DNA of 64,000 nt from Bilabrum cf. latius. Taxonomy: Eukaryota. Positions 1-64,000 of the stretch are shown one piece after another. The notes below the pieces were generated by a model. The model did no database searches, was not told the DNA's origin, and saw only the letters and a program-made list of their open reading frames with translations. The stretch's first letter is position 1, and the number at the start of each line of letters is the position of its first letter. A program made the position numbers and the translations under genes. The DNA is taken from contig OZ237746.1 of assembly GCA_965178125.1 (NCBI GenBank), positions 62,001-126,000 on the forward strand. The letters are read 5' to 3'.

Positions 1-1510
1 CTTCCTCCTCCCCTGGCAGCCCCGTCCCCGCTAGCACTGCAGGCGCGAACTTGTCCCAGCCCCATGCGTGATACTTTGCCAGGTGTCGGATAGACCCGTC
101 CGTGCTGCAGGGGGCGTCCACCAGCACGCGGTCGTACTTCCCTTGGTGACACGACGAGGTGCATGCTGGCTCTACCGATGGGTGAGCCTGGGGGTGGGAG
201 GGCACCATGGCAGGGGCAGGGGCAGGGACAGGGACAGGGACAGGGGCAGGGGCAGGGGCAGGGGCAGATGATGAAATACTACGCCCCTGAGGCGCCGTGG
301 CGATCCCGAATGGCTCAGGTTGGCCGGCAGATGGCTTGCTAGACGAGTGCGGGTGCTCCGTGGCTGTCGATCCTCCCCCGGCATGGTTGCGTGCCAGCCC
401 CAGCCCCGCCTCCATGGCCCACGCGGGCTCCTGCAGCCAGGCCACAGGCACTCTGCCGCCCTTCTCCAGCGCACCCGGCCGCCGCCGGATCGCGGCCAGT
501 CGACTGCTGTCCATCGCGACTCTCGTGTGACGAGTGCCATCCACCGGAGGGGGTCTCTACTTGCCCTTTTCCTTCTTCTGTTTCTTTGACTCGCCAGCAT
601 GCTGCGCACCCCTGCCCCCAGCGCCCTACCCGGTTCCTCCGGATCCAACTCCGGCTCTGCTGCCGCGCGATGCTCCAGCCTCAATTCTGGCCGCAGCCCT
701 GGATCTCTTACCCCCAAGACGAGAATCTCTCCCCGATTCAGCCTTCATGCCTTCGTGCCCCTCCTCGTGCCCCTCCTCCTTCTCCTTCTCCTCGCGCCCG
801 TCTGGCCCCGCCCAGCGCGGATCCTCGTCAAAGAACCGCCCGTCTGCTTCCACTAGGCGCACTCTCCAGTGGCCTCGCGCAATTCCAGGCCCCGCGAGCC
901 CCGCTCGCCGAGCCAGCCCAGCCGCAATCTGCAGCCGATGCGCGCGGACGTCCACGCCAGTGAGCGAGCCGTGCCGACACATCAGGTCGCCAAGCAGAGC
1001 AAGTTTGCTGCCAGGGGCGCAGCAAAGGTCCAGCACGGAAGGGCCTCGTTCCATGTCCAGAGCTGCATCCGGCTCCCCCACTCCCAGCGCCAGGGCTGCT
1101 AAAATTGAGGATGCGTCGATGCCGTGAAGAGCGCCTGCAGCATACAAAGGAGACCGCTGCAGAGCAACGTCTCCAGGCAGTTGAAACACCCAATTTGCCC
1201 ATGCAACACTACTGGCTAACTGTGCTCCTGCAGTTTCCGGGCCATTCGAGCCCTCCGATGATGTGGACGGCAGCGAAGCACCAATAGAAGCAGGTGGTAG
1301 GGGGCCAATATCACCTGGCGCAGCTGAGTTGGGATGGAACGGACTCAGGCGAGAGTACCGAGCCAGCTCATTCGGTGGGATTTCGTAAATTTTTGTATTC
1401 ACGCCTTCCCGTCTTGCCCAGCTCAGGAACTCCGCCGGTAGGTGGTCACGCACTGCACCTCCACCACTGGTGTGCAGCTTTGATATACCGAATTTAAACG
1501 AATCAGACAT
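1..1510 (-). CDS. NOL1/NOP2/Sun (NSUN/RsmB-like) RNA m5C methyltransferase, 3' end runs out of the window
   Basis: SAM-binding motif VLDLCCAPGSKL. The same frame, read through TAG at 626-628 and 557-559, reaches KYDRVLVDAPCSTDGSIRHLAKY (motif IV) near 140-70. ATG at 1510. Confidence 0.85.
209..267. repeat. (GGGGCA/GGGACA)n hexamer microsatellite inside the methyltransferase CDS
   Basis: About 10 tandem hexamers are directly visible. They encode an Ala/Val-Pro run on the minus strand. Confidence 0.9.
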
Positions 1511-1680
1511 CAAACATCAATGGTTGAACTTCTTCATATCGGCACAGGTCGGCGCTGTGCTAAATCCGATGCCAGTAGGAAAGCCGGAAGCACCCTCATC
1601 ATCATGATCGTCGCTGGCGGTGCCAGAGTGCGCGAGGCAAAATGTAATTATAGGCATGAGCATGATACATGGCAGTAGTT

Positions 1681-4600
1681 TCAACTCTACTCAGCCACCC
1701 CCCTCCTGGACGCATTCGGTGACTTCTTTCTGCCGCTTGGCCTGGCCACCCCACTGGCAGTCCTGTCTCCTCGGGACCCACTGGCAGTACCTCTAGCAGA
1801 TGAGTGCGAGCTGCTCCGTTCCCTTCCAGCCACGCCGCCCTTCCGCTCCTTCTCTTCCAGCTGCATGGCCTCATTCCGCAGCCGCTGCACCCTTACCGCC
1901 ATGCCCTCCTCCCTGGATCCAGCAGGCCGCATCCTCCTCGCCCTCGCCGCCCGGCCGGCCCGACCGGAGGGGGGCCTTACCTGGCTCTTCGAGTCTGCGC
2001 CTCTCCGCAGGTCTTGCGCTGCGCCCGGCTTCAGCACGCCACCAAGCTCGCCTCCTTGCTCATTCTGCGCCGCTCGCAGCCATGGATTGCTGGACACTGT
2101 CCCCAGGGATGAGTCATCGCGCCCGGGGGTCACCATGCTGAGCCAGGAGCGGTCGGACCCGGTCGAGTAGTACTACTGGGCGGCTGTAGCTCCGGCGCTC
2201 GTCGCAGAACCGCCACTCCCAACCGCAGTAGCACCTCGCAACCCCGCGCTCGACGTTTGACCCCAGCTACTACCACTCCCGTCCCGTCCCCGTCTCCTGC
2301 CATGTTCCCTGCTGCCACCTCGCGAATTTCGGCCCGTCCTGCCGCTGCCGGTCTCAGCCCTCCGGTACAGAACGAACGTAGAGAACACAACCACGGCCAC
2401 TGCCCCAGCCGCCATGAGAACAACGGCAACTGTAGACATGCCCGATCTTTCGTTTCCACCGCCATTGCCCCCAACCCCCGGTGGCGCCAGACCGACCAGG
2501 GAGCGGTCGGCATTCAGAGCTGTTGCATCCGCGGACCATGCCCCCTCCTCCACGGTAGGGCCCAGCAAGTCATGGCCCGAGGCTGCGTCGCTCATGGTCC
2601 CCGATGCGAGAAGCTCCAGCACAGCCAAGTACATCTCTACACCATCGATGGATCGATTCACGGCCACCATCAGGTCGATACCAACCCTCGCTCCTTGCGG
2701 GGGCTCCATCTCTGCCACCACGGTCAAGTACACGGCCCTGCTCGCGTTCACGCCCATGAGCTCCATGGCCAGGTCAGCCAGCGCCACCGCCTCCGTGCAC
2801 CCGAACCTGGTCGTGTTAACCGATGCCAGGTCCAGCCGGAGGTTGACGGCTAGCGGTGGATCTTGTCCAGATGTATCCAAGTCACGGTGGCGATCGCACA
2901 GACGCGCTCTGTCCCGGTCGAGGGGGTTCGGGAGCAGCTGGTTGGGCTGGAGCACGATGGGAGATGCTGGGGGCTGCGAGGGTGAGGACAGGAAAGAGAG
3001 ATGGAGGCATAGACGAGTGCATGCAGACCAATCGCCGCTAGCAAATTGCGAATCGGAGAGGCGAGAAGCGCGAAAACCACGCTCCAGACAGCGCCAGGGT
3101 GCTACATCCAAGATCCGGATTGAACTGTCTCACCGTGGTTGGCATAGGACTTGGAGGCGCCATCGGTGACCGACTCGGCGACGGGATGGTAATGCTGGAA
3201 ACAGTCGCACTGGACATGGCTGTCGCACTGTAAGCCGGAGTTGACGAAGGCGTAGGGGTGGATGACACTGGTCCTCTGCCGTAGCCCACAATGCCAGATG
3301 CATTCAGTCGTAGGATCCACACGGCCCCCCGACTCAGCTCACCATCGTTGTCATGTGGGGCACCGACAGCCAACTCCAGCAAGCCGTCTCCGTCCAGATC
3401 GCCGATTGCAGCCATGGATCCCCCGAACCCCCCTTCTCCAATTGGTAACCCCCCTGGAAAACTGTTCTCGCCCGATACGGTGGAGTAAGACTACACGGAC
3501 CCATCAGGGGAAAGGAACAGGAGCCACACTGTGGAGACCTGCACGCTGCTGGGTACACGCTCCTACAATTGGTAAGAAGATACGGCGATATCCACCGCAG
3601 AGTCTCCATTGAGGTCGCCCAGAGATGCAATCCCCTATCCAAAGAGTTGATGACTGGTCATGTCTCCAGCAAAACCGTTTAGCCCCGTCCGTATCGAGGC
3701 ATTCCGAAGCAGGGTCCCATTCGTTGACAGGAAAGCCAAGAACACACACCCAGCGCTTCCAGTACTCTCGCGTCGAGTCGCTTCTCCGACTGCAACGTCC
3801 ATCACCCCGTTGCCATCCAAATCACCGATTGCAGCCAGCTAGGCCCAGAATCCACCGCCACGCCAAAGAACCGACCTGCCCTCGCTCTGCAGCGCGGTGA
3901 TTGTACTTGCAGACCCATCGCGCCGAAGTCTCATGAGCCACACAGGGCCACCTTCTCCAAAGCCCACAGCGAGGTCCGGCAGCGCATCTCCATCAATGTC
4001 GCCCATGTTGGCGAGTGCGCTGCCCAGATGATTGTGATTCTACACTATGATCTACGGGCTGAACGTGCTGTTCGTGATCTGCGTGTGCGCCTTGACTGTG
4101 CCATTGCGACGCAAAAACAGAATCCACACAGAGCCCTGCTGCGGGTTGCCACCGTTGTACAGGTCTCCGGGCGCCCCCACGGCCAGGTCGGGCACACCAT
4201 CGTCGTCCAGGTCGCCAAGCGCAGCCATCGAGCTCCCTAAGAAACCGTTGTTCTATAGTTCACCCGTAAGGTCACCGTAAAGGCTGGATATCTCTTGATA
4301 CTATCTGACCGTGCCATTGGCGTGGAGGAACAAGATCCACACTGCCCCTTTGTGCCATCCACCCACGTCTCGATCGCTGGGCGCGCCCACTGCCAGGTCC
4401 TGCACTCCATCATCGTCCACATCACCGGGGCAAACCACTGCGGTTCCAAAGTTCTCTTGTCGCTTGACGTCACCTGTGAATTCACCGTACACGCCGGATA
4501 TCTTCTAGTAGCCAAGCGTGTGTAGGAACCCTCTCAGGGGGCGGGTGGAAGGAGTGATGCTCGGCGTTGGAGTCGGAGTCACCGGTGAGGGCGTGGCTGT

Positions 4601-7564
4601 CAGAGTCGGGGCTGCGGTCGGAGACACCGACAGGAGGGCTGTCGCATTGATCTTGAGGATCCACACCGCTCCCTGACTCAAGTCCCTGTCATCATTCCCG
4701 GGCGATCCGACAGCTAGCTCAGGCAATCCGTCACGGTCCAGGTCGTGCAGCAAAGTTAAAGCCGCTCCGAATGAGTCAAATGGCTCAAGCACACCGGAGA
4801 AGCCGCCCTCAGTGGCGGATATTTTCCTGTGATCCTTCACCTTGCCATCCGTGCGCATGAACAGGATCCACACCGCGCCTCGAGAGAACTGGCCCCCGTC
4901 TCGGTCCCTCATAGCTCCCACAGCAATGTCATGCGCACTATCATCGTCGATGTCGCCTAGTGGTGCCACTGAGGACCCGAAGTAGTCAGGATAAATCAAA
5001 GACCCCTTGAACTCTCCCTCATACCTGGATATCTTCTGCCGGCGCAGCAGAGTCCCATTGGCAGCCAAGAAGTGGATCCACACCGCTCCAAAGTTGAGGC
5101 CGCCGTCGCGATCCGTAGGGTCACCCAACGCTAAGTCGCCCATACCATCCTGGTTCAGATCTCCAATGGATGCCATGGACCTCCCGAATGCGTCAGACAG
5201 GGCCGTCACTCCCTTGATCGACCCGTCAGGACGCAGCCGCATGATCCACACTGCTCCCTCCGAGTCCAGCGACTTGTAGTCGTTCAACCCCACGGCCAGC
5301 TCAGGAAGCTCGTCACCATCGATATCATCTACCACCGCAAGGGACGCACCCAAGTGAAGGGATTCCTTCCAGGCGTCTATCATCCCGATGGTGTGATTCG
5401 TGTGCCGCACGTGCTCGCGGACTGTCCCATCATCGTTGAGAAAGAGGATCCAAATAGAACCAAGCCGCTATCCATTTGAACTTGATCTCGTGTCCCCTAC
5501 GGACCCGACCGCCAAGTCAGGCGTGCCATCTCCATCCAAGTCCCCGAGACCAGCAAGTCCGACGCCGAACAGCTCAAAGGTTAGAAGCTCGCCGGTGAAT
5601 CCACCCTCCGTGCCGGAGATCTTCTGGTGCGACTTGACCGTTCCATTCGTGTAGAGAAACAAAATCCACACGGATCCAGCGGTGCTGTAAGGCCCGTTAC
5701 GGTCCCCTGGCGCAGCAACGGCCAGGTCACTTACGCCATCCCCGTCCACATCACCCACGTTCGCGACCTGTCCCCCGAAATCCACCTGCCTTGCCAAGAC
5801 TCCGGTGAAGCCACCAGATACCTCCGAAATCTTCGTCCAGGGGCTGCGCGGGACAAACGTGGGAGTGACGCTCGGTGTGGGGCTGGGCGAGGCCGAGGGC
5901 GTGCTGGATGGAAGCGGCGTGGTTGCCACACCGCCTCTATCGATTCGCAAGATCCACACCGCCCCCTCGTCCTAGGACTCGTCCCCGTCGCGACGCTTCG
6001 CACCGATCGCTATTTCCGGTGCACCGTCTCGATCTAAATCCCCAAGAGAAGACAAGGAACAGCCGAACAGGTCACCGTCTGATATCCCGCCGGTGAAGCC
6101 ACCCTCTGTGCCGGAGATCTTCTGGTGCGAGTTGACCGTTCCATTCGTGTAGAGAAACAAAATCCACACCGCCCCTCGACCCGAACCCCCCTATCCATCT
6201 GCAGGGGCCCCCACCGCCACATCCACTGTGCCGTCCCCATCCAAGTCACCGATCCCAGCCACCGCAGCCCCAAATCGATCCCCGTCCTGCAGCGCGCCAC
6301 CGAAGCTGCCGCCCGCGCTCGAAATCCCCTGCCGGCGCGCCGCCACTCCGTTGGCCCCAAGGAAGTACACCCACACAGCTCCCCTGTCAGTGCCGCCCAC
6401 ATCACTCCCTGGATCCCCTGCCGCCACCTCGAGAGGCCCTGTCCCGTCCAGCTGCCCCACCACCGCCAGCGAGTCCCCAAGTCCGTCTATGCTCTCGGAC
6501 ACGCCCTTGACCGTGCCGTTCGAGCGGAGAAAGATCGCCCACACGGCTCCGGTAGGGCTCGAGCCCGGCAGGCCCACGAGCAGGTCGGTCGCCCCGTCTC
6601 CGTCCAGGTCGCCTGGGGCAGTCAGGGATGCACCCATTCGATTCAAGTCACTCAGCACAGCCAGCCCGCCGAGGGTGGACCGGGACAGCTTTGAGTGAGA
6701 CTTGACCGTGCCGTTCGCTTGCAGGAACAGCACCCACACCGCCCCTTCTTCTGTACCTTCCTGCCTGTCCGCGTTGCCTGGCGCTCCCACGGCCAGGTCT
6801 GGCACACCATCTTCGTCCAGGTCCCCCAGCGCGGCAAGGGAGCTGCCGAACTGGTCCTGCGGGCTCAGGTCGCCAGCGAAGCCCCCGGCCGTGGCTGAGA
6901 TCTTCTGATGCATCCGTACTGTGCCATTCCCGTGCAAGAAGAGCACCCACACGGATCCCTACGAATTACCTCCGGCATCATCAAATGGTGCGCCGACCGC
7001 AATATCTCCTACCCCGTCTGAATCAATGTCTCCCACCGATACGATCGCGCTTCCGAACTCGTCAAATGCGTCTACGGACCCTGAAAACCCACCCTGTGAT
7101 CTGGACACTCTCTAATGCCCAAACGTGCGAAGGGGGGCAAGCCTGCGTGCTGCATGCCACCACATCCCGGAGTTACCGCTGTCAGCAGCCATGGCGATGT
7201 CTGCATGCTACCCGGGGGGACCAGGGGTGTGGATGTTTGTATGAACTGCAAAGGGCAGTTTCCAGCCGTCGCTTAATCGAGGAGAAGCTTGCGCTGCTTG
7301 TCGGAAAGTTGAGTGTGCTAGTGCAGGCGGAAGCATCACAGCAAGAAGCCACACACTGCGAGTGGGCAAGAAAAAACAGACTGAGAGGAACTAATTTAGA
7401 GTCTCTGACGTTGCATTTCGAATGAAAATTGCCACAAACATGATATCATTCAATGGAGAGCTGTTGCGGAATCTCGCGGGTTGAAGCCATTCCGGCCAGA
7501 CCAGCATTACTTGGCCTAAAAAACACCGCACCACAATCCATTTAAATAAGGTGAGATGATACAT
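1681..7564 (-). CDS. Large type I membrane protein (~1900 aa) with 18 FG-GAP/integrin-alpha-like repeats
   Basis: 18 GDxDxDG...LAVGAP...GAVWIL repeats in three blocks of six, separated by Ser/Thr/Pro-rich linkers. TM segment (TVAVVLMAAGAVAVVVFSTFVLY) near 2430-2365. One frame once TAG=Gln, with a phase-0 GT-AG intron at 3133-2974 and TGA stop at 1681-1683. The start is uncertain; a signal-like VWLLAVMLPPALAHS lies near 7350. Confidence 0.85.
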
Positions 7565-8067
7565 ACGCGGTGATGAATTCACGGGGCCTGACCATATCGG
7601 CGTAGTGCTAGCGCGTGCGTCAGACCTTTGGAACGTGAGCAAGCTGGCCCGGCTCGATCTCACCAAGCTTTCAAAGACAGGTGGTATATCCGAAGATTCA
7701 TGCCAATAATTGAGCTAGCCTGTGACAATTGCGAGTGAAGGTCTACCCCGACTAGTGCTGTCGGCGCCAGCCAGACCTGTCACCTATGCGTGGCACCGGC
7801 GCAGTGTGACGAAGTGATGCAACGCATTTTGACGCAGGTGCAACGCACGCGCGTTGTCAGTGTAAGCCTACTTGTGCATACGTGTCGAAGCACTGCATGG
7901 TGTGATTTGCTACGTAGACGTGCAGCCTTAGTAGTATAGATCTACAGCTGCCGCGAGACTTTTTCGTCTCTCAACAGTCGCAACGTGTGGTCGCAACGTT
8001 AATTTACTGAGAACAAAGTAGTTGATGTTTTCTCGTCAGCTCAAATCGTATTCACCAATGAAGTGTC

Positions 8068-9828
8068 TCACATCACGCCGCCAGCGCCCCCTCCCGAGAT
8101 GCCCATCCCCATGCCACCGCCCATGCCCATGGCGCCAGGCCCAGTGCGGGCCATCACAACCACCATGCCATCGGGCATGCGAGCACCGGGCAGCTGCGCA
8201 ATCAGCTGCCCAGCCACATGAGGGGGCGCGAGCATGGCCTGCTGCTCCTGCGCCTGTGTCATGGGCATGAGCACCGGCACCAGCGCACTCACGGCCTCCA
8301 TGGGCACAGGGCGCCCGCCCCGCCCTCTCCTGCCTCCCTTCTTCCCTCGGCCCTTGCCCTTTCCCTTGCCCTTGCCCTTCCCATTCGCCTGCACCGCCAC
8401 ATCATCCACGGTCTTGCTGTCCCAGGCGTGCAGCGCCCTCCTCCACGCCCTCAGTCGCCCGTCCCAGCGCCGCTTGCTCACCAGAGCACCCCGCTCGGGG
8501 GTCACGGGGTGGTCCACCCGCCGGCGGTTGCGCGCCTCCAGGGGCACCGCCCCCCGGTAGTTCCGGTATTCCTGCGTCTTCTTGCCCTTCTCGATCTGGT
8601 AGTCCCTCGAGGCCAGTGCCTGGGCGGAGAGCTCCGAGCACAGCGGGGTCAGCGGGGAGCCCAACGGACTCAGGGGCTCCTCGGAGCTCTGGGACCCGGC
8701 GCACTCGTCATCCGCGTCGGGGGCCACCACCCTCATGGCCATGGTGGAGCCTGCCAGGGGGGCGGTCGCGCTCGCATGGCCCGCCCCCTGCTCCTCCTGT
8801 TCCTCAGAGGCAGCCTGGGAAAAGGCGTGCAGCAGCGACCGGCGGGGCGTGGGTGTGGTGCACCTGGAGGCGCCCTCCACCTCCACCACCTCCTCGGTGT
8901 CTCCCGCGACATCCCCCGCGCGCACAGTCTCCGTCACCAGGTCGTGGCTGGCGGGCGTCAGCACCCTCCGCTTGGTAGCCCAGGCAGGGGTGCGCGGCCC
9001 CTCTGCGGTCGCGGAACCGGACTGCACCTACCTGTCTGCGCGGCGCCGGAACACCCGCTTGGTCGGTTTGCCGCTACCGCTGCTTCCAGTGGCAGGGGCA
9101 GAGAGGCCGGCTGCAGCCTACTCCTTGGGCTCCTCCTTGGGCTGCTCCTTGGGCTGCTCGACGCCCGCAAGGTCCACAGCAGCAGCGTCACTCGTCACAC
9201 ACCCCCGGTGCCTCCTGGCGGCCTCGGCAAAAGACCTGGCGGGGGCTACGTCCCGCTTGGGGGCCATGGCCTCGATCCCTCTCTTGCTCCTGCTCTCGCC
9301 CGCTCTCTTGCTCTTGCCCGCTAGTGCCGGCTGGGCCTCGGGGCGGCTGGCCTTGGCCCTGGATTTGGCCTTGGATTTGGCCTTGGACTGCTTGCCCTTG
9401 TCGCCCACCGATAGGGTCCGTGTCAGAGCGCCCTCGGCCTTGGTGGATGCATGCGGCGGCGTGCTCGTCACAGTACCAGCCGGAGATGCAGCCGGGGCGG
9501 CGCTGCTCCCCGTCGACGGGCTTGCGTGGCGGATGCACGCGGCACGGAATCCGCCCCATGCAGGCTTGGCCGCTGTCACTTGCGCCGAACTACTTTTAGA
9601 TTTAGATACTGAGGTCTTGTTGCTTGCAGGAACTCCCTTCTTGGCAGGTTTCTGATCGGACTGCGAAGCGGTTTGCAAGTCAGTTGTGTATCGGACAAGT
9701 GGTGGCAAAGCTTTGGTATCCATCGTTTTCATTGCCGCAGGGTGATTATGATAACACATAGAAACGGCAGCGGGCACGACTACCATAGCAGCTGCCAGCT
9801 GGGGAGCAATCCATAGCATCAAGATCAT
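8068..9828 (-). CDS. SLBP: Histone mRNA stem-loop binding protein (SLBP) domain protein with long low-complexity flanks
   Basis: QIEKGKKTQEYRNY...HPVTP...SKRRWDGRLRAWRRALHAWD resembles the SLBP RNA-binding domain. ORFs 9118-9828 and 8068-9027 join through two in-frame TAGs and stop at TGA. Start codon uncertain. Confidence 0.75.
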
Positions 9829-10271
9829 GATCGTCGGCGTTCAAAAAAATCCAAGGCAATGGCGGTGCATTTACAGTCACGGATCGGCCCATTGACGCGC
9901 CATGAAGCATTATTACTGTCTTACATATCCATCGATTCCCTCGGCCCCCAATCCAACATCTGCGTCGTTGCTCCAGTCGTACTCTTCCATGTGCAACCAA
10001 ATTTCAAACGATCAATTAAGAATCGAGGCACTCTTGTACCGATGTGTGAGTCCTAAGGCTAAGTCTCCGATACTTTATCAGATTAATGATACACACAGGC
10101 TGCTCTATATTAATTGAGACCCTCGAACGCGAACGGCTTGGATGGATTGCGGACAGGCCAAAAACGGCGTCGAATATCTACACGCAACTGATACACTCGT
10201 CACGCCGAGCAAGAAAAAATATACCAGATCCAGTGCCAGAACTTGTACATTGCATTCATCGTCAAGCCAAA

Positions 10272-12050: not shown

Positions 12051-13071
12051 TCAGTCCGCCTCAGCGATGGCAGTCAGATGCCCCTCGATGGTCGCCTCGC
12101 TCAGCACCTCGGCCACCGCAGCGTGCAGAGTCGTGCCCCCGCTCGCACTGGCTGCACCGCCTGCCGCCGCGCCGCCCGCCCCGACCGCCGCGGAGCTGTC
12201 GCGCACGACCACTGCTTCCACCTCCGTGGGCTTGAAATCGGCGCCCAGGACCGTCTGCAGCGTGTCCAGCGCCAGCCTCACGGTGGCTTCCTCCGTGGTC
12301 GGGGGGGCGTCCCTCACCGCCTTCTCCAGGCGGTTCGTCGCTTCCTGCTCCTTGGGGCCGCTGGCGCACGCCTTGTATCCTAGGAAATATCCAGCGGGGT
12401 CGATCCGGAATAGCATGGGCCCCTTCTCGTCATCCACGCCCACGAGCGTCATGACGGTCGCCCGGATGCGGCGGCCGGCGTGCTGCGTGTACACCTAGGC
12501 CTTGTCCGCGATCTTCTTTGCCAAATAGTCCACTGGGATTTCGTACCCATTTTCATGCTTGAAATCTGCCGCAATCTTTCGAGCGTCCTACACCACCGCT
12601 CGGCTGTCCGCTTGGATCCCAGTCATAACAGCGTGAGTGCTCTTCGTGATTGCATACACATTGGTGACCGATGTGGGATCAATGAGCTTGTCCAATACTT
12701 TCTTCTGGGTAATGGCTACCACGCATCCGGCTTCCTTTGACTTCACAGCCACTGTTGTCAACGTGCTGGTCTTGTATCGCTTGAACGCGTACTCTGCGGT
12801 GCCCAGTTTCGTCGAGACAGGCACATATGACGGTGACATGGGGGCCAACACATATATGCACTCGCAGTTGAACGATTACGGTATCAGCAATATCAATGGC
12901 GCACGGAAGAAGGCTGGCGACAGGATTCCCAAGAATAGCGATACGGACGTGCACGAACTGGATTGGGCAAATCAGGCTGCACGCCGACTTGGTCGACTCA
13001 CCAAGCTGATAGAGCTTCCCTTCAGGCGAGAAAACACTCAAATAACGGTCATATCCGCTCTCCCTTGCCAT
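12051..13071 (-). CDS. PSMA6: 20S proteasome subunit alpha type-6 (alpha1)
   Basis: [28 protein letters not shown] with an intron at 13001-12794. Motifs GYEIPVDYLAKKIAD and DPAGYFLGYKA. Two TAGs (12588-12590, 12495-12497) fall at conserved Gln positions (V*DAR, A*VYTQ). TGA stop. Confidence 0.95.
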
Positions 13072-14938: not shown

Positions 14939-15090
14939 GATTTATGTCATCATCGACACGATTGGTGGATCATGGGCGCTGATATTGGCCACACTGTGAG
15001 CAAAAGAGAATCGTGTTCGTCACTTTGTCGCTTGTGTGACGGACGCTAGCGCTAGAAGCTAGGGAGAGCGGTGGAAAATCAAACGCCACC

Positions 15091-32533: not shown

Positions 32534-32857
32534 GTCGGCCAGCCCAACTTCCTGTTTTTTAACCTTAAGAGTCTATGCGACAAAATGCTGCAGTACTATT
32601 TATCTTGCACCTGTACAGTCCATATGTAGGTCCTCTGCACTATTACAGTGCAATGCATCCAAGTGGTTCCGCTCGGCATGATGCGCGGTGCCAGTCAGGC
32701 TTCTACTGCAGTTCGGCAACATCAGACCCTTCCACGCTACCTTGCGAGCACCGCCCGCTGGCTCAAAACGAACAGCGGAACGTGATAGCAACGAATATCG
32801 GAGTATATTGTCCAGCTCCTGCGTTTTGTTGGTTGCTGAAGCCGGGTTGATTGTGCA

Positions 32858-49660: not shown

Positions 49661-52042
49661 ATGAGGTTTGCTCGGGTCCTGTAGGCAGTCAGAGTATTGC
49701 CAGCGCTTAGTGCGGCAGTCTTAGCTGGGAAAATGCAGTCCAGTGCTGTTGAAATGGCTACAGATTCGGAGAATTGTCCGGCCCTTGAATCGTATAGCGT
49801 TTCAGTCTCTAGACCGTACCGGCCCGTCAAACCACTGAATGCCTAGAACAAACTATCACTACGGCGATCGGTGGTGGTGTTCCGCCACGGCGACAGGTCT
49901 CCCATTTCGAACTAGGTGAACAATCATGTTGTGGTGGACCGCGAAGCCGAGCAAGAATGGGATGGCAAGCTGCCCAAATAGCGCGATATCCGAAAGCTGG
50001 CAGCCGCTTCGCCTGGTATGTATCCAAACGACGAAGCAAGCGACCGAACAGGTCGGGTGAGTCGGAAGAGCTGCTTGCTGTGTGCCAGCATTGGAGCGCT
50101 GACGTGCAATGTCCGATATCGAGGCTGCGCGTGTGTATATTGCCTGTGATCATGTTCTTCGAGCCGAAGAACCGTTGTTTTCTGTACAGAATCTGTTATT
50201 TCGCAGGAATGGCCGCGGGGCTAGCTGACCGCCCGCGGAGTGTCCCAGCTGAGGGAGCTCGGCACCGAGCTCAGGAGGTGGTACGTGGGCGGTGACTGCG
50301 CCTCGGCGTTCCGTGACCAGCCCGAAGCAGCAACTGCCGCTGCTGCTGCTCGTGGGTCGGGTGGCCTGCTTCCACGCACCCTCCCGTGCCAGGGAACAAC
50401 CCTCCGCACGGCGGCCCAGCCCCTGCCCCAGTCAGCGCCTTCCGTAGGCAGCGGCTCCAGCGAAGCGCCTGCACGCCCGTCACAGTCCGCAGCATCCGCC
50501 GATCCCCCCCCTGGCGGGCTGCTGCACCTCCGCTCCACTAACATAACGCGCACTGTGCAGTCCCTCCAGGCACTCCTGCAGGGATTGTACCCAGAGGGGG
50601 CCAGGGAGCAGCGATGCACGACGGGTGCACAAGAGGATGGCAGTGGGGGTGGAAGCACTGGCAGTAGCGCGATGGCCCAGACCCCGATCGAGGTGGCTCC
50701 CTTTGAGCAGGAGAGCGCTTTCAGGGCGGGAGGCAAGAAGTGCCCCGCACTGGCTGACCACCATGAGGCGCACATGGGCAGGGTGGTGCGGCACAGGCAC
50801 AGGCAGCGGGCCAGGGCCAGAGCCAGTGGCAGTGGCAAGCAGGGAACAGAGGCGCCCTCTTCCTCCTCTCGAAAGGAAGCGCGCAAGCACCCGCTGGCAT
50901 GGGAGGGGCCAGAGGGCAGGATCAGGAGGCAATTCGGGATACCAGAGGATACGCCCCTCCACTGGCTCCAGCTGCAAGAGCTGCTTACATGCTCGGCAGC
51001 ACATGGCATCCCGCTGAGGATGCCCGATTCAGGAAACAAACGGGGTGAGAGAGTCACGGAGCACGTGCCCTTGCAGCTGGTGCGGGATGTCCGAGCCAGG
51101 GTGGTGGCCGAGACGAGTCTCGAGATGCACGCCCCTGGCATCCTGAGGCTGGTGGTGGGGCCTCTGCTGGGCGAGCTGCTCGCGTGGGCCGGGGCCCGGC
51201 CCGCACCCGATGTGCCACCGGGGGTGCAGACCCCCGGCGGGCTGCTGGGGGCTCCCCACGGCCCCTCCCCTCTGACTGCCGACCTCTCCACTGGCCCGAG
51301 GCTGGTCCTGTACTCTGGGCACGACACCACCGTGCTGCCACTGGCGGCAGCTCTGGGGGCCAAGCTGGACGACTGGCCCGCGTATGCATCTTCCGTGGTG
51401 ATCGAGGTATACGAGCAGGAGCAGGAGCGGGAGCAGGAGGGAAGGGAAGCCCCGCGGGGGATGAGGTACGTTAGGGCGATGCTCAACGGACATGTGCTGC
51501 CGCTGCGGGACTGCTTGCTGGGCGAGTCGGAGCACAAGCGGAGGGTGCGTGCGGCAGTGCGGCAGGCGGTAGGGAGGCGAGGGAATGAGACTGCTGCTGG
51601 TGCTGGAGGAGTCGTAGGAGGAGGAGGAGGTGGTGGTGGTGGTGGTGGTGGTGGTGGTGGTGGTGGTGGGCCGTCCCGACTCGCTGGGACCGGTGGGCTG
51701 CTGGACCCTTGGCTCAGCGATCCGACCCTGGTGACTGTGGAGGAGCTTGGGCAGGCCTGGGAGGCACTGGTGCCCGGCGACTTGGGGCGGGAGTGCTGGA
51801 GCGGGGAGGCGGCCCAGTGGCTGCTGGCTAGCGGGGCGGGGGGGAGGGTGGCTCGTCGACTGGAGTCGGAAGCCAGGAGACTTGAGACTGAGATGCAGGG
51901 GGTTAGAGGAGAGAAACGGGTAGGAGACGAGAGCCTGGGCGAGAAGCTGGACATTGCAGGCTCCGAAGGCAAAAGGACGGTGGACGTGGCCGGGGGCAGC
52001 AGAGCGGCTGGAGACAAGGGTGTGGACGGATCCACTTTCTGA
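49661..52042 (+). CDS. Histidine acid phosphatase (ACP6/lysosomal acid phosphatase-like)
   Basis: RHGDRSP, G*LTARGVSQ (TAG at the conserved GQLT Gln, 50222-50224), RSTNITRT and YSGHDTT. Intron 50057-50206, TGA stop. Confidence 0.88.
51617..51670 (+). repeat. (GGA)n(GGT)n trinucleotide repeat encoding poly-Gly
   Basis: Directly visible within the phosphatase CDS. Confidence 0.9.
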
Positions 52043-52476: not shown

Positions 52477-55400
52477 TCACTCGGCCTCCACAATCTCTTT
52501 CGCCTTACCGTAAACCGACCGGATGCCGTCACCCACAATATCCACCACCTATCCTGACAGCAACCAAGCCGTAGCTCCCGCCGCAACCCCCGCTATGATA
52601 GCTCCGACGGCGGCACCAGGCGCAGCCCCGACTCCTCCAAACCATGCCCCAATTGCAGCTCCTGCATTTGCACCTGCTGCCGCTCCTGCCGTGGCAGACT
52701 CGATAACAGCAAACCTCACTGCTCCTGCAGCTGCCACTTCAACTCCTAGCATGCCACCTTGTGCAGCGAGCTCCTAAACAGGATCATCAGCTGTGGCTAC
52801 TGAATAGACGATCACTCCCGCCTTGAGTGCTTGTCCCCCAATCTTGGCAAATCTGGAGTCCAAGACCCTATGCATCTTGTCGACTCCCTGCTGCAACCCC
52901 TTTATAATGGGTTGCTCTTTGATGAGGGATAAGCGGATCTTGGATGCATCCACCTTTTGCATGACAACTACTGGCCCTCCCGTCTGCCCATGCGCCCCGT
53001 TGAGCCTAGCTTTGACCAGGGCTCGCACCTCGCGTGTTACATCGCTGGCAAATTGCTCTAGCTTTTGAGGGCGAGGTATTCGAAGCTTAACACCGCTATT
53101 ACTTGCTTGTTCGAAGGCCTTCTCTAATACTTTGGGGTCCGCACGCCCTCTTTCATCGACAGGGAGGACGAATCGAGTGCAAGCCATGGATGATCCAGGC
53201 TTCTTCGCACGACGGACCTGCTTTTTGGCGACCGGCAAATCTAGGGGCTTACTCCTCGCCGGGATTAAGCTCCTTGCAGCGTCCATGATGTTCTTGTGCG
53301 GTAGCCCTGAGCGCGCGATAGATGAAATTGGGGACAGCGAAGGGTGCAGCTTTGCCTGATGCACAGAGGCACCTGCGATTTCTCCCGTATTTAGCAAAAA
53401 GCCTGCGATATCTGCAGCGGTTGCATGCCACCCCTCCTCACTTCGAAGCACTTCTCCATTGATTTGCGTATCAAAGGTCCTTCCATTAGCCTGCATGGAG
53501 GACTACCCTAACCTATATTCCAGCGTCACGTCTTCGGTAGTAACCAAGCCTGGGCCTCTTAGACCATCTACCTTCGAGAACTCCATAAGAGATGCCCTTC
53601 CGCTGGGCTCTACGACAACGAGACTCAAGTTTGCATCTGGGCCTTTTTCCCGAGCCAAAAGCATCCGAGTTCCACTTGGAGTGGGCACAACGACTGTCTT
53701 GGACGCCTTGTTCCGGAAGTAATACCCGCCGCTGCCGGTGTCCATTGACCTGCTCCGGCCCCCTTCTGCAGTGCAGAAAGTGGCCGCAAAGTCGTGAAAT
53801 TGACCTGGGGTCAGGTTTCCGCGCTATTCATCTCCTACACCACACGTTCTGCACGCGGCAGCGATCCCAGCAGCTGTCGCTGGCGTTGGGTAGACCAGGC
53901 CGGGAACGCTCTTGGGGAACGCTTGCAATGCACCACTATTCCTTCCACTGCAAGGATAGCCAGGGACATCACCACCCTCACTACTACCACGGGCACTGAG
54001 CATCGTAGTATCTTGTACCAGCTGCCTACGGCTAGGGTCAAACAAGGAGACTTGGGGCATGCCTGCAGCAACCGCGAAGTCTAGTCGGCTTGGCGGCTCC
54101 ACCGCCTTTGTCCGCTTCATGGTTGGAGCTAGCTTCACCCCACCGTATGTGGAGGCCCAGGTCGACGACGGCCCACATTTGCTTGATCCGCTCACTGCAT
54201 CAGGGTCGATGATGGTGCCGATTTTCAGGGGCCTCGCAATCCACTCCAGTTTGTCTCCGTCAGTATCTCCTCTTTCGCGAGTCAATCCAACCCGGCCGGC
54301 CTCCACCCGGCGAATGACGAAGCTCTCGAGCGTTGTCCCAGCGCCCTAAAACAGAACTTTAGTTCCTTGTTCCGGAACCTCAACCTTGGCATGACGTCCT
54401 TTGACAGACCGAAACCCTCGCGGCGTGAACGTGTGTAGCGGTCGCACCCTTGGAGACGGCAGTCGGATCTACTCGGTCCAAAGACTGCTCCAGCCGTCGT
54501 AACGAATAGTGATGGCCACTTTACGACCTTTCTCACCAGCAGCCGCACCGCCATCGGCAGGACCTGTGTCCTCCTCGAAGGCGCTCACGGAGACAATGCT
54601 GGCTGTGTACCACCCGAAGCCCTCATCTCGGACGTCCAATGATTGCCCTACCTGCAGCCCTGCTCCATTTGGTCTGCCATGAGCGTCCAAGGGGGCGGCT
54701 AGCAGCGTGTCAAAGGGGAGCTTCCGCAGGCGCAGCAAGTTCAGCGCCAAGGGTTGACCAGGGCTGCCCTCGGGTGCGCCAAGGTCACGTACCCATACCC
54801 TGGCCTGGTCACCCTTGCCCTCCTATCTGATCACAGTGCACTTCACAAGGCCTTCCTCAAACCCCGGAGCAGGCAGTCCGGCGTTGGTCCTTCGTAACAC
54901 CTCCGAACCGTCTGCAGGAGCCACGGTGTAGCCCACCCTCTCTGGACGCCACTCTGTAAACTCCCCGATCTGAGCCACGTGGTCAGTATCGCAAGGAATC
55001 CACAGGTCCCAGTCCTTCGGGTAACCATGGAAATGCACACACACCCTGTTGAGCTCCGCATTTACGTCCATGATAACAGCCTTGTGCCACGTGAAGAACT
55101 CGTCATTGGCATCAATATTCTGCCCAGGGTGTACACCTCCTCCTGCGACGCCGGCGGCCACACCATCTAGGGTCGGGGTGTACGCCGGGAGCTGGAGCCG
55201 GAAGCGCGCGATGGGAATATCCAGGCGCTGGCCATCGGTACAAATGGGTGCTGCCAGCCACGGAACCCGCAGATCCTTGCACAGTCTGACCTTAACCTTG
55301 GCAGCATCGCCATGTCCCTCGCAGCTCATGACTGTTGCCTCAACACACAATGGAGCTCCAGAGAAGCTGCCGACAATCACCTCACCTTTTGACCCCGCAG

Positions 55401-57255
55401 TCGGAAGGACAATTGTGCCGGCTCCACGGCCAGAGCTGCGCATTCCGACGTGAGTGTGGGTATGCAGAGGTGCGATCCGCTCTAGCGGGATCCACTCATC
55501 CATTTCGGCTCCCCACCCGTCGAAGTGGACCAGAACGACGCACTATGACCCTGCAGCGCTGATATTTACCACCTCAGCTGTGTAGTACGTGAAGTAGCGG
55601 TCGCATGCGTCCACCACAGAGCCGACTGGAGGCACCCACCCATCCTCCCCGGCGTCAGCGACCTGCTTTGCTATCTCTTCCTGTTTGCCTGTGAGCACGA
55701 AGCTGGATGGAATCACCGAGGATGCGAGCAGAACAGGTGCCCACGTCGCCGTCCTGGCAGCTGCTGCTTCTGATGCAGGCATGACCGTCAGCGCCCCGTC
55801 TGCTGGGTTGAATGCGCACGGCGAGCCAGATGCCACATTTGCGATATTGCGGATAGCCTCGGGATGCGTGTGTGCCTCAACAAGTTTCACGGCCTCTGAC
55901 TACGCCAAGCAGAAGGCACCAATCAGGCGATAGAACTCCCTAAGACGGGCGAACTACGGCAGCACCTCTGCGGTAACGTCAAGGTGCTCGTTGAGATCGT
56001 CTACGAACCTAGAAAAGGAGGACTAGCGCATGTTGTCCCACTTGACTAGACCACACCTTTCGATGAAATCGCCGCCCGGGGCGTGTGGATCCGCGCCGCC
56101 GGCCCCTGACACTGGGGCAGCCGACCTGCCGACGACCGCATCGGGCGTACCTTCGCCATCTGCAGCCCGACTAGCTCGGCTGCCATCACTATCGGCACGT
56201 TCGGGCTCCCCAAAGGCCTCAAAGCAAACCTTTACATTTGCCTCTTCGATGTCGAAGGTGGTACCATTGCCGTCGGTTGTGGCAGAGGCGGAATATCCTA
56301 CATCCTCCACGCAGTCGAACCACATGCGGCATGCTACTGGCTCCGTTGGGATATCGATTCCTACCAATGTGGCGTCCTCCCGCGCCTCCTGCTTCCGCTG
56401 AGGGACAGACCGCAGGTGATGCGCGGTGGCATCCGAAAGGCCACGCGCCGTAAGCCCGATCATCATGGGCCTGACAACGAACGGCGGCTTGGTGGACACC
56501 TCCGTCCCCTGCGACATCCACTTTAGGTACATATCTGCATGCAGCATCGTGACTCCGATGCTCGAACCAGCGAGACACGGCGGCTGGATTGTGATCTGCT
56601 GCAGTGGCTCTGGTCCCAACTTGCGTGAGAGCGGATCGAGGGAGATGCTGGCCTTTGTGATGAAATGCCTTGCCACTAGCACCACGTCCTCTGCCGACAA
56701 CAGGGCCTCGGCCGGGTCCTCAGCTGGCACCATCAGTAGCTGTATCTTGTCTCCCGCTGCATCAATTTTGACACCCTTGACCCCGAGATAGAGCTGGTTG
56801 CCATCTCGGTTGAAGTTGAGACCACGGAGCTCTCTGGGCAGGAAGCCGTTGACATCACGAGGCGTGATTGGGTCGCTCATGTTGGCTTCTAGCTTGTCCT
56901 TTAGGGTGCCAAGTGGCAAGCACCTGTATAGGGCGTCGGCCCGACTTTTAACGAAGAGATGATAGTCCCCGTCCGCGCGGTATTCTTTGGTTGCTCTCTG
57001 ATACGTGGTGGTTGCTGACCTATAGGTTTGTTCATCATCTGGCGACTGCGTGAGAGTTAGTAGGCAGGAAGACTTATTTGCAATGAACTATGACGGCTGC
57101 AGCAAGCACTTTGTCCATATTCAATTAATTAATGGAGGCCACAGGCAGACTGGGCCCTTTAGTGCGTGCCCAATCCGATGGACAGGTGTGAAAACGGCAA
57201 TGGATATATTTAGGAGAATTAAGCTCACCATAGCCGAAGGTACCATTGCGGCCAT
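52477..57255 (-). CDS. ~1530-aa hypothetical protein: unknown N-terminal domain, three Tudor/MBT-like repeats and C-terminal glycine zipper
   Basis: Single frame 57045-52477 once TAG=Gln, ending at TGA, plus a short inferred first exon 57255-57229 (CTAAC branch point before the acceptor). Three G.x.xD..D....W/Y..A.I/V...VHF/Y.GW/Y...D/E.WI units. C-terminal GAAAGANAGAAIGAWFGGVGAAPGAAVGAIIAG. Confidence 0.75.
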
Positions 57256-59535: not shown

Positions 59536-59915
59536 TGATGGTTGGTAATGTGGATCTGTCGATCAACCGCTCAATGCTTCGCTCCCCCAGCACTCTCCCT
59601 CTCCCGCCACGCGCCACTCGTGCGCCGCTACCCACCGTCGCCCACTCGTCTGTCGCTAGCACGGCCGTCTCCGTGCCGCCTAGGCCCGGCTGGCCGCTTT
59701 GTCCTGCCCTCAGCTTCCACTCTCGTACCTAGTACCTGCTCCTCGTAATCTCCTCCTTCCGTGGCGCTTTGGTTTTGGCTGGTGCTTCCCCGGGCACTGG
59801 GCAGGCGGCACGGACCTTTCAAGCCGCTATGGGGACTACCTGCCACTGGCCACGGGATCTACACTGGGCCCCCCTTTTGGCTGTTCGCCCATCGAACGCC
59901 GCAAGGAACACCCAC
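59536..59915. repeat. Direct repeat copy (putative B1)
   Basis: Identical by eye to 57718-58097. On the minus strand it begins 8 bp downstream of the YR stop. Confidence 0.92.
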
Positions 59916-59923
59916 TGGCCCAG

Positions 59924-61267
59924 TTAGAGCCCTGAATCCCGTTCACCCCCACCACTGCTCACTGGGCTCCGGTGAAGCTCCCTGCGTTGGGATTCCCAAG
60001 TCTTCAGAAGTTCTGGGATGGAGCCAGCTCCCACCATAGCCCGAAGAATCCCACTCCTCGTAACCCTTGCCGCTTCCATCAATGAGTAACGATCATACAC
60101 CGCTGGCATGTTGGGCAGAGACCACCCAGCCTGGCCGTGCACGTACTTCTCGTCCTTGGTTGGGTCCGTCTGGCGCAATGCTGACACTCCCGCACTCTTG
60201 AAGGCGTACACACCCTCCCCCTTGCGGTGCACAGGAATCCCTTGCGCTGTTATCCACTGCAGCGTGGCACTGTGCGCAGCCCGTGTTCGAGAGGCGAATA
60301 CTTCCCCGCGCTGCCCTTGTGTTGGCTACCGAACTGATACCCACCACTTCAGCCACCGATACGGGCACAACTCCTCGAATCCATCCGGCAAGCATGGAAT
60401 GACCGCTGGCGGGCGCTGCTCGGGGTTGCCGCCGAGCACCCGCGACTTGTACCGCTGCCACCCAATCAGTGCCACGGGAACAACCTCGTTGTCATCAGAC
60501 GCTGCAGTCCACTCTATCTCCCCTATTGCCAGATGCACCAGATCTGGCCACCGGGCCAAGCCACAGAATGTCCCCACATAGCAGCACATAAATGTATCGA
60601 GAACCGCTGGTGTTGAGTTGTAGTCCGCACGGGCCAGCGCAGCTGGGCCTTGCCACATCGAATCCCACTCTGCCTGCAGCTACCAGGCCATCATCACTAG
60701 TGCTCGCAACGTTACAGGGTTGTCCACCAGGACACGTAGGGCACGTACCGCGTCCGGATCCGTCGCCCCGGCACATCTACGCTTGTAGCCGAGCAGGGCC
60801 AGTTTGACCTGCCTGTACTCCACGTCTGCGAGTGGGGTACGCGGGAACTCCGCTGACCTGAACCACGCCGTTTGCGCTTGGAACAATCGCAACACTGTGG
60901 CATACTTCAACCCGGCGGCGCACTACTCCGTCAGCAAAGCCCACATGGCCTCCACCGGATCCCCGACCTCAAGTTCCGCCTGCATGGTCAGATTCCGCCT
61001 GCGCGCGTCCAGAGCTCCCTTGCCGAGCTGCTGACTCTCCTACAGCATCAGGGTCCTAGTCGCCGCCACCGCTGCTCGCCGTTGTGCCGCAGCACTTGAG
61101 CCTGCTCGTCCAGTCACTGGGATCAGCTCCCCAAATGGTCCTGCGAAGATGAAATGGTGCATGAAAAGTTGAGTCAGATGTCGCCCTTGCCGCCGAGACA
61201 AACCCCGTTTTGCCCACGCGCTGCCCCGCCGTCTACACCAGTTGACCAGCACCGTCCTCCACCCTGC
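59924..61267 (-). CDS. Tyrosine recombinase (ORF3 of the retrotransposon)
   Basis: One frame via TAG read-through. Motifs TFCGLARWPDL (box I Arg), GVYAFKSAGVS (divergent box II) and GQAGWS...MPAVYDR (catalytic Tyr). Ends in TAA and overlaps the RT-RH 3' end in another frame. Start unknown. Confidence 0.7.
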
Positions 61268-63572
61268 TCAATCTATCGCATGCCACCATGATCGGTGTAC
61301 TTCGCCTCTACCACACGGGGAAGATCACGTATCCCAAGTTCTCAGCCAGCCTTCCAATCTCTCGCAGCTCATCTCGCTACCCAGCCTTCATCGAGCCGCC
61401 CTTCCGCAGCAAATTTGGCAGGGCTTGATTGTCTGACAGCACGAAGAGCGCCTCTGGGCAAGTCTGGCTCCTCGCCAACTAGCCTGGTCCTGACAAAAAA
61501 GCTCGTAGTGATGCTAGTTCGCGTGCCGTACTGGATAGTAACTGCATGTCCTCGTGGAAACCCATTTGCATCAAGCCAGAATCACCATTGCCTCGGCGCC
61601 ACATTGCACCCAGTCCATGGGCTGACGCGTCAGCACAAAACACGGATGCTCTCCCCTCCGGCAACGGGTATATCGGTGCAGCTGCTGCCGCTGTCAAGAT
61701 ACCGCGGTCCCTACATGTCAGCCACCACTCAAATTCCTCGTTGAACTCTGCCGTCCAGATGTGCCTACCACCTTTGCGAGCCTTTGCAGCCGCCTAGTAT
61801 ATCGCAAACACGTGCTGCGAAGCGTGGGGGATTACTGCCGCAGCCGCGCCCAACTGTCCTGCCAGTTTCTCCACAGCCTTGACCGCCAGCGCACTCGTTG
61901 CTAGCATGTTGAAAGCTCGCATTCGCTCAACGGTCCTCAGCACTGCGTGGATCCGTGGCCATCGATCCGAGCGCAGTGTCACCTTCAAGTGGGCTCCCAG
62001 GGTAATCTTTAGCCCAAGGAACTCAATCACCTATGTTGGAAAGGTAAGTTTGCTAGGCTATATCCTCATGCCAATCCCCCGCGCTACAAGCACGGCACAC
62101 CACAACAACTACATAGTGCGGGCCTCCGTACGTGCTGACAGAAAGCCATCATCAATGTACCCAAAAGCCCAATGTGCGGTGCGCAGTCGCACCCCCGCTA
62201 AACACTCTGCCAACACTACTGATGCGACAAAACAGCCCATTCTGCAACCAAACGACAAGACCACAAACTAAAACATGCTGCCACCCACTCCGCGAACTGC
62301 CATCCATCGCTGCAGCCCCGGTGCCAGCGCTATACTATGATATGCCGCCTTGAAATCGAAGGCTGCCCCCCATTCGTGCCTGTCACGTCCCACGCGCTCT
62401 GCTAAATGCCGAGCAAAATCACCATACCGGAAACGCAAGTCAAGAAATGCCTCGTTCGCGCCCGAGCGCTTCATATCCGTGACTAGGCGCTGCTTGCCAG
62501 TCGTGTCCTCCCGCTGCACCAAGCGTGGTGTCTGACCCTCCCGCTGCTGTACCTCGATTGCGGTCCTCTTGGCAACGAACATAGGCGTCACCTAGACCGC
62601 GGCGCCCTCCACCGGTCGAATCTTGCCTGCACTCGCTGCTGCTTCCACGAACGGGACTACATCCTCCTCGTCCGCCGGCAAGTCCTTCGGGTCAGCCCGT
62701 ACCGGCTGCGCCCCCAACACCTTCAAGACTGCCTCCGCCCGAAGCCCATGTCGTGCCAGTCCAACAAACCCCCGGCCCGCTACACAATCGGGCTCCACTG
62801 CGCCCCGCGCCCCGCAGCGTCGACAACGAGCCAAATGTGCCTGCCATGCTCCACGAGGTGACAGCGTACACGGCTAGCGTGCTGCCCATCGCTCCCCCTG
62901 CTGCAGTTCGCCCCTACGCTCCCAGTGTGACAACGTTCCATACCAGACGTCCAAAGCAGATGATGGTGCCTAGCCCGGTGGGAATGACCGCAAGTCAATC
63001 TTGTCCCGCTTTGCCAGGCATCGTGCCCAAGCCTACCACATCCCGTCCGCACCCAATGCTGACGGCGCATCCCCAGTCATCCCCGCTCCCGCATCACCGT
63101 CATTGTCCACAGAATAGCCGGCTGCTTCCATCTGCACCTCGTGCCATCGTCTCGAGGGGCCTGCAGATGCAACCTAGTCCAACAATTCGTCCGCGTGTTC
63201 CATGATGTCCGTCACAATGCACCGCCCATCCAGTGTCCGCAGGCTCGGCTCACCACGCTGTAGGGTCGGAGTCTTCTGCTGAGCCAGGATTTTTTGCGCT
63301 GCTTCCGAAGATAGTGCACATGCCTACACTACTGCAGCCCTTCCCCTGGCTCGGGCCGCGTCACCCATTCCCCGCTAGTCGGCCACTTCGTCTTGGGGAG
63401 GTACGGGGCTCCGCCTACGTTTTGGGCCCCGATGTCGTCCCTTTTTGGCGCTCTGACTCCTGCTGCGACTCTTGTCCACCCGCACTCGCGCTACTGCTGC
63501 TGCTGCTGCTGCTGCTGGCCTTCGCTGACTACCGTTTTGCCGCTGCCCCCGCTCCTCCAGCTGCGGCCCCAT
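60969..63572 (-). CDS. Reverse transcriptase-RNase H (ORF2 of the retrotransposon)
   Basis: RT motifs TPMFVAKR, GKQRLVTD, FDFKAAYHSI, F*FVVLSFG, YIDD and IEFLGL. RNase H motifs ADASAHGLG, SSTAREL, SDNQ and ACDRLSR. Many in-frame TAGs, TGA stop at 60969. Confidence 0.88.
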
Positions 63573-64000
63573 GCTCCTTTGCCACCCGCTTCGCTCGCTC
63601 CAATGCTGACTTGTCTATCGCGGCTGTCACATCCTCCCACGCCATAGCGCTATGGTTGCCTGCCGGATTCAGTCCCAGTAATTCCCACGTGGGCCCCACC
63701 TGAGTCTGCGTCATCCGCAGCGGGGTCTCGTTCTCGCTCCGCAACTACCACAGTCGAAGCACCGCAGGAGTATCCATTCTCCCCACTGGTGCCACCCTAT
63801 GTATCAAAATCATGCGCAGAGCAGTTGCTAACACGAAATGCTGACCCGTATTGGCTGTGTCCCCGTTGCCTCCACCTGCCGTGCGGACTGCTGCCGCATG
63901 AAGGACCATCCCTAAGCCCAAGAACATTCTTCGCACTGCAATCTCCAACGCCTCGTGAAGCTTGCTCATTACTGCCCTGGCTTCCGCATGCTTATCCTGG
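63361..64000 (-). CDS. ORF1 (putative Gag-like) of the retrotransposon, partial
   Basis: Open frame via TAG read-through from the window edge to TGA at 63361, overlapping the start of ORF2. Identity rests on position only. Confidence 0.55.

Follow-up and report, generated by a model that had tools for sequence, protein, structure and literature searches.

The window analysed here is a 64,000-nucleotide stretch of DNA (contig OZ237746.1, positions 62,001 to 126,000, forward strand) of eukaryotic nuclear character, with a GC content of 58-72%, whose protein-coding genes are crossed by TAG codons in frame. TAG is a sense codon in the organism from which the window comes, and the residue read there is glutamine (Gln, Q). 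We put a probability of roughly 85% on the reading in which UAG encodes Gln, genes usually terminate at UGA, and UAA, while not a sense codon, most likely still serves as a stop, in a GC-rich, bicosoecid-like eukaryote. The genes and open reading frames (ORFs) that carry this reading, together with their neighbours, are the following, with L001 denoting a syntenic metagenome contig and X5 one of the runs whose contigs are described below.

1681..7927, minus strand: FG-GAP repeat protein gene (Pfam FG-GAP, E 1.7e-98), with 21 in-frame TAG in ORF 2882-7927
8068..9840, minus strand: SLBP-like gene (Pfam SLBP_RNA_bind, E 2e-21), with 2 in-frame TAG, ending in TGA; ortholog in L001
10331..11779, plus strand: acetyl-CoA acetyltransferase (thiolase) gene, by Pfam; TAG at 10628, TGA at 11777-11779, introns 10331-10453 and 10482-10582
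12051..12793, minus strand: last exon of PSMA6 (proteasome alpha-6); TAG at 12590 and 12497, TGA at 12053-12051, intron 12794-13001 upstream
13709..14941, minus strand: ORF of unknown family with 5 in-frame TAG, ending in TGA; no Pfam family; an X5 contig spans 13250-14988
15091..21840, minus strand: armadillo-repeat protein ORF with 3 in-frame TAG, ending in TGA
24078..25878, minus strand: channelrhodopsin gene, ortholog of B1ChR2 (Pfam Bac_rhodopsin, E 8e-21; PDB 8jxo_A, E 8.5e-168 and 5.4e-30)
27139..32151, minus strand: double ABC transporter ORF, by Pfam, with 9 in-frame TAG, ending in TGA
32840..38629, plus strand: hybrid histidine kinase / response regulator ORF with 13 in-frame TAG, ending in TGA
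38774..45595, plus strand: leucine-rich-repeat protein ORF with 6 in-frame TAG, ending in TGA
50150..52042, plus strand: histidine acid phosphatase ORF, by Pfam; TAG at 50222, ending in TGA
52477..57120, minus strand: Tudor-knot protein ORF with 12 in-frame TAG, ending in TGA
59924..61267, minus strand: second retroelement ORF ('YR') with 4 in-frame TAG and TAA at 59926-59924, the only long ORF so ended
60969..63626, minus strand: retroelement reverse transcriptase (RT)/RNase H ORF (Pfam RVT_1) with 18 in-frame TAG, ending in TGA

Read with the standard code, the window yields no ORF longer than 948 codons. Freeing TAG yields ORFs of 2274, 2250, 1930, 1682, 1671 and 1548 codons, and freeing TAA instead leaves ORF lengths nearly unaltered. 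The domains encoded by these ORFs are ordinary eukaryotic ones and extend across the TAGs. A scan with TGA as the sole stop, which makes no assumption on TAA, returned as its nine longest ORFs reading frames of 886-2294 codons with many TAG and no internal TAA; TAA occurred solely in two 5' leaders, at codon 35 or 43. Across 13 long ORFs (14,999 codons) we counted 97 TAG, 0 TAA and 0 TGA in frame, against 176, 73 and 505 off frame in the same ORFs, which corresponds per 1000 codons to 6.5 versus 5.9 for TAG, 0 versus 2.4 for TAA and 0 versus 16.8 for TGA. Because TAG occurs in frame at about its off-frame rate it is a sense codon, and TAA and TGA are excluded from the frames. The count of 97 is an upper bound, as the ORFs take in leaders and at least one intron (the TAG at 3040 lies inside intron 2974-3133). 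The in-frame TAGs that the original prediction, made from the letters of the window, had pointed to are all present, at 10628 (thiolase), 12590-12588 and 12497-12495 (PSMA6), 50222 (histidine phosphatase) and 62270-62268 (RT), with those of the FG-GAP repeats H*RVS (the asterisk standing for the TAG) and Y*KIS at 7114 and 4507.

Residue read at TAG

Several of the TAGs fall where homologous proteins have Gln. In PSMA6 both align to Q in the plant and mouse 20S proteasome structures, and their columns hold Q in 119/119 and 92/119 homologues. For the RT, 373 homologues were found; in columns built from 150 homologues, with 7 near-identical fragments dropped, Q is found in 84/125 sequences at column 531 and in 39/131 at column 452, and seven further TAG columns are variable. 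The TAG of the histidine phosphatase is matched, in a weak PDB domain alignment, by the Q of GQLT. Within the FG-GAP protein, H*RVS and Y*KIS correspond to HQKIS in sister repeats, a match that had been pointed out in the original prediction and that we could confirm; most TAGs of the repeat alignment lie in variable columns, and the HQKIS comparison alone is informative.

Summed over the 11 TAG columns that have 20 or more homologues, the log-odds favour Q (+8.66), with H next (-6.69); S scores -10.56, and L ranks below the eight best residues. In a control with 1000 draws of random 11-column sets, each of the 19 testable residues was recovered correctly at least 98% of the time. The mean log-odds for Q is 0.79 at TAG columns, between the values for CAG (1.27) and CAA (0.64). 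Close relatives of the retroelement, compared at 15 TAG sites in a tally that omits P0005, P0006, P0009 and P0011, show Q at 8 sites, R at 4, C at 2 and K at 1; single copies have Q,Q in P0010, C,Q,Q,Q in P0002, K,Q,R in P0003, Q in P0012, Q in P0016, R,R in P0015 and R in P0013.

Codon swaps with a relative lead in the same direction. L001 is a 6461-base metagenome contig, reached via a PSMA6 protein of 79% identity, and its gene order is that of window positions 1681-13100: PSMA6, thiolase on the opposite strand, SLBP and the start of a further ORF. Identity to the window is 84% for PSMA6, 85% for thiolase and 47% for SLBP, and the three L001 genes contain 1, 2 and 8 in-frame TAG, respectively, with in-frame TAA at 0 in all three. 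In PSMA6 and thiolase, the counterpart of a TAG in the other genome is CAG or CAA at 5/6 sites and AAG at the sixth. Since TAG faces CAR (R, A or G) across the two genomes, it acts as a synonym of CAR, and comparison of the two sequences places the UAG reassignment in at least two related organisms.

The TAGs also persist in spliced contigs. Coverage was examined over 2800-22799, at the level of contigs and not of raw reads. Four introns with GT..AG ends are bridged by contigs of X5, X7 and X8, two on the minus strand (2974-3133 and 12794-13001) and two on the plus strand (10331-10453 and 10482-10582), and X6 contributes an unspliced contig over 6140-10785. Thirteen TAGs lie inside contig pieces with 0 other letters, namely ten FG-GAP TAGs (3493-5470), the thiolase TAG and both PSMA6 TAGs, and four runs carry identical letters. 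As the spliced contigs hold these 13 TAGs unchanged, editing and splicing-out, either of which the original prediction had said would count against it, are excluded at the 13 covered sites.

A number of observations weigh against UAG = Gln or against parts of the wider reading. At RT columns 749 and 772, two of the variable ones, distant homologues mostly have I/L/V; P0010, a retroelement copy of 78% identity, has Q at both. The thiolase TAG column holds M in 42, L in 37, G in 22, N in 12, S in 2 and Q in 1 of 116 homologues, and the original description of this TAG as a Gln position therefore fails for the family at large, yet stands against the close relative L001, which has CAG there. At five TAG columns of the Tudor protein its lone homologue shows E, E, G, S and R and no Q, although at 32% identity it is uninformative on residue identity. 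In SLBP, at 47% identity, TAG faces CAG at 1/9 sites only. The 'RNA?' labels of the runs are guesswork, one run being tagged 'probably DNA', and a search among sequencing runs listed no RNA run that contains the sequence. A tRNA scan of the 64-kb window and L001-L003 returned 0 genes, a search of the window and L001 with Rfam gave 0 matches, and the 64-kb window contains no eRF1 gene. Finally, none of the host genes in the window ends in TAA, and the stop role of UAA derives from one transposon ORF and the relative. Taking both sides together, we consider UAG = Gln, as originally proposed, to be supported by the homologue columns, the codon swaps with L001 and the TAGs retained in spliced contigs.

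The share of TAG among the Gln codons varies between genes and drops with rising GC content at third codon positions (GC3; Spearman rho -0.71, P 0.007, 13 ORFs), from 35-36% in the FG-GAP and RT ORFs (GC3 0.61-0.64) to 4-7% in the armadillo-repeat, leucine-rich-repeat and thiolase ORFs (GC3 0.78-0.85).

UAA, UGA and the competing readings

Which triplets end genes in this organism? Alignments of the thiolase and of PSMA6 with solved chains extend to the chain ends (in the thiolase, the PDB alignment reaches the final residue), TGA follows in both, and by these alignments UGA acts as the terminator at conserved C-termini. For UAA, the codon counts speak to its exclusion from the sense set. The 13 long ORFs contain 435 CAG, 102 CAA, 97 TAG and 0 TAA, and A-ending codons make up about 20% of their pairs (CAA 102/537, or 19%; GAA 155/769; AAA 82/383). 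If TAA tracked CAA, 22.7 would be expected; none was seen, and the probability of 0 TAA among 97 TAR codons is 1.3e-9 at a 19% share. The absence of TAA in spite of the 19% share of CAA rejects the ordinary code in which both UAR codons mean Gln. Together with TAA at the conserved end of the L001 PSMA6, it supports UAA as a codon outside the sense set and UAG as uncoupled from it, as the original prediction had it; a TAA as common as TAG at Gln columns was looked for in the 13 ORFs, and TAA was found 0 times in frame.

TAA is found at the end of a coding sequence in two places. One, unique in the window, is the end of the retroelement ORF at 59924, which has no family match. The other is in L001, where PSMA6 ends ...HLTAIAEAD followed by TAA, the window's PSMA6 ending ...HLTAIAEAD followed by TGA, and the solved proteasome chains end there too. 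UAA is most likely a stop, the stronger basis being the end of the L001 gene, followed by that of the retroelement ORF. Of the two stops originally named, UGA is borne out at two conserved C-termini, and UAA in the organism of the window itself is the weak point, with one transposon ORF.

The tally of ORF ends was tried as evidence on UAA and rejected. Among the 13 long ORFs, 12 end in TGA and the 'YR' ORF in TAA; the host ORFs, as originally noted, end in TGA in 13/13 cases; and TGA closes every ORF with a positive coding score, apart from a 126-codon ORF that lies antisense to the rhodopsin gene. Chance alone puts TAA at the end of 14% of the ORFs that reach 100 codons, and 13/13 TGA ends have P 0.14 at that share and 0.055 at 20%, so the tally is compatible with random ORF ends.

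Among competing readings, the one that survives best keeps UAG = Gln and makes UGA the sole terminator, with UAA unassigned or barely decoded and avoided both as sense and as stop. TAA is indeed missing in frame and from the ends of all 13 host ORFs, and the lone ORF ended by it is a retroelement ORF without a family match. However, the 13/13 TGA ends are not significant at either share, and the TAA of L001 PSMA6 falls exactly at the conserved C-terminus; we regard an unassigned UAA as unlikely. We give far less credence to an ambiguous code of the Condylostoma or Blastocrithidia types, in which UAG would be sense within genes and would also terminate near their 3' ends. This might apply to the genes of unknown family, and in the Tudor ORF a TAG precedes the TGA by 24 codons, but both genes whose C-termini are conserved continue to a TGA, as do all 13 host ORFs, and no case needs TAG as an end, the other 11 protein ends being not anchored by homology.

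The ordinary UAR = Gln code (of the NCBI table 6 type), with TAA rare merely from GC richness, is still more improbable. The GC content of 58-72% would favour such scarcity, and on the plus strand of the whole window TAA is the rarest stop triplet (179, against 402 TAG). Yet the A-ending partners stand at about 20% with TAA at 0/97 TAR, the same ORFs contain 73 TAA off frame, and TAA follows the conserved end of PSMA6 in L001. That the TAGs are untranslated, being intronic, edited in the mRNA, or products of pseudogenes or assembly errors, we dismiss as next to impossible, for although the TAG at 3040 is intronic and several others lie in 5' parts of ORFs of unproven coding status, 13 lie in 0-mismatch pieces of contigs spliced elsewhere, which refutes it for these 13, TAGs sit inside ungapped alignments to solved structures with the same letters in four runs, and ten long Pfam-domain ORFs broken by TAG alone cannot all be pseudogenes.

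How might one codon change meaning without the other? Under the reading of UAG as Gln with UAA retained as a stop, we suspect that UAG would be decoded by a tRNA-Gln whose anticodon, CUA, is separated from that of tRNA-Gln(CUG) by a single mutation. As C34 pairs with G alone, such a tRNA would leave UAA unread. In parallel, eRF1 may have lost affinity for UAG while keeping its binding of UAA and UGA, as has been proposed for Iotanema spirale, where an eRF1 GTS change was put forward (PMC5304391).

Organism and neighbouring features

The channelrhodopsin gene offers a clue to the identity of the organism. Its ORF 24868-25878 has 9 mismatches to 8jxo_A over 251 aligned residues (about 96% identity), the next ORF extends the match over residues 323-390, and the two ORFs read contain no TAG and lead to a TGA at 24078. 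Beyond the 391-residue solved construct the protein has a long C-terminal extension, and an intron apparently lies near 25100-25230. Structure 8JXO is that of B1ChR2, which is a channelrhodopsin of Bilabrum sp. selective for potassium, and a stramenopile review places Bilabrum latius among the bicosoecids. Judged from this one gene, the organism is most likely a bicosoecid stramenopile close to Bilabrum. In a PSMA6 tree the window and L001 form a long branch (1.93) that is weakly placed, and the lineage is not fixed by the tree.

PSMA6 is only about 50% identical to any named eukaryotic ortholog, sits on that very long branch, and carries an Ala/Gly-rich insertion ahead of its conserved C-terminal tail. 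Contigs span the thiolase over 10583-11927 with 0 other letters. The best matches to its segment 10583-11779, a fragment from the organism itself aside, are 60-67% identical, and the named ones are mostly Bacteroidota along with several oomycetes; the named eukaryotic matches are mostly oomycetes at about 60% identity. This pattern could come from ancestry or from an old transfer. SLBP, by comparison with L001, evolves far faster than its neighbours PSMA6 and thiolase. Within the SLBP-like gene, at 8330-8390, contigs of X5, X7 and X8 pile up, break and join far places, at a depth of 500-680 against 3-30 nearby, which is probably due to a low-complexity, Gly/Lys-rich coding repeat common to many genes.

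The FG-GAP ORF 2882-7927 is spliced via intron 2974-3133 into a last ORF with its TGA at 1681; the splice frame was checked, and the joint is present in contigs of X5, X7 and X8. The gene does not stop at 2882, as splicing carries it on to the ORF ending at 1681. Pfam assigns no family to ORF 1684-2973.

The retroelement occupies 59924-64000 on the minus strand, with the RT/RNase H ORF overlapping the second ORF and a possible further ORF upstream (63361-63999), for which Pfam returned a chance-level match alone (Peroxin-3, E 0.74). The second ORF does end in TAA, as originally described; its designation as 'YR' stands without a Pfam match at E<=1. The retroelement has the highest TAG density of the window, with 18 TAG in the 886 codons of its RT/RNase H ORF, and near-identical retroelement fragments in the databases (P0004, P0007, P0010, P0014 and P0034) are cut exactly at TAGs. 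A metagenome scan with the RT protein gave 67 pattern matches, 0 of them confirmed. Along the window, the sign of the GC skew tracks gene orientation in large blocks, being negative over 1-32000 and 52000-64000, where most genes lie on the minus strand, and positive over 32000-52000.

Relation to known codes

UAG and UAA nearly always change meaning together in eukaryotes, and a change of UAG on its own is rare. That rarity was rightly noted in the original prediction, yet the type of code is already published (PMC5304391, PMC11687900). Our search for a published nuclear code change in Bilabrum, bicosoecids or stramenopiles, which ran mostly outside subscription journals and excluded supplements, found none. 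The chances seem to us about even that a bicosoecid clade, comprising the organism of the window and that of L001, represents the first nuclear code change in stramenopiles and an independent origin of decoupled UAG and UAA, with UAG taken over by Gln in a GC-rich genome and UAA retained as a stop. If so, a free-living, culturable heterotrophic flagellate would become a tractable system for the discrimination between UAG and UAA by eRF1. Each exception to their coupling shows that eRF1 and the tRNA pool can separate the two codons, which bears on the evolution of the code and on amber-suppression engineering in eukaryotes; a GC-rich stramenopile would extend the independent origins beyond ciliates and metamonads and argue against AT pressure as a requirement. 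There is a practical consequence too, in that standard-code annotation or ORF calling on transcriptomes gives fragmented genes, both in this organism and in its relatives. Fragments of its genes that break off at TAG, such as P0004, P0273 and P0152, are already present in protein databases.

A related code is that of NCBI table 6, in which UAR means Gln, and which is used by many ciliates, ulvophyte algae, hexamitin diplomonads, oxymonads and Amoeboaphelidium. It shares with the window UAG = Gln and UGA as the most-used terminator, and differs in that UAA is Gln there, whereas TAA makes up 0/97 TAR codons here. Decoupling of UAG from UAA, with UAA still a stop, is also seen where UAG has gone to other residues, Leu in rhizarian exLh and Ser in Scotinosphaera; by contrast, L and S score well below Q over the 11 columns of the window. 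The table that reads TAG as Gln is presumably number 15. It is used by some gut phages, which switch code in a bacterial host that keeps the standard one (PMC9523058). The table is formally identical to ours, but the setting is a phage in a bacterium rather than a eukaryotic nuclear genome.

Among nuclear genomes, Gln for UAG and not for UAA, which stays a stop, has been described in Protocruzia tuzeti and two phyllopharyngean ciliate lineages (PMC11687900). Those ciliates share with the window the assignment of both codons, and differ from it in their nuclear dualism, whereas here we find spliceosomal introns, a retroelement and a channelrhodopsin of stramenopile type. The other comparison is with Iotanema spirale, in which UAG is Gln and UAA and UGA are stops (Panek et al. 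2017, PMC5304391). Both organisms are protists outside the ciliates, with UAG = Gln and UAA outside the sense set. Iotanema, however, is an anaerobic fornicate with UAA as its primary terminator (PMC5304391), whereas the present organism, with its GC content of 58-72%, looks like an aerobic stramenopile, and UGA ends 13/13 of its host ORFs in the window.

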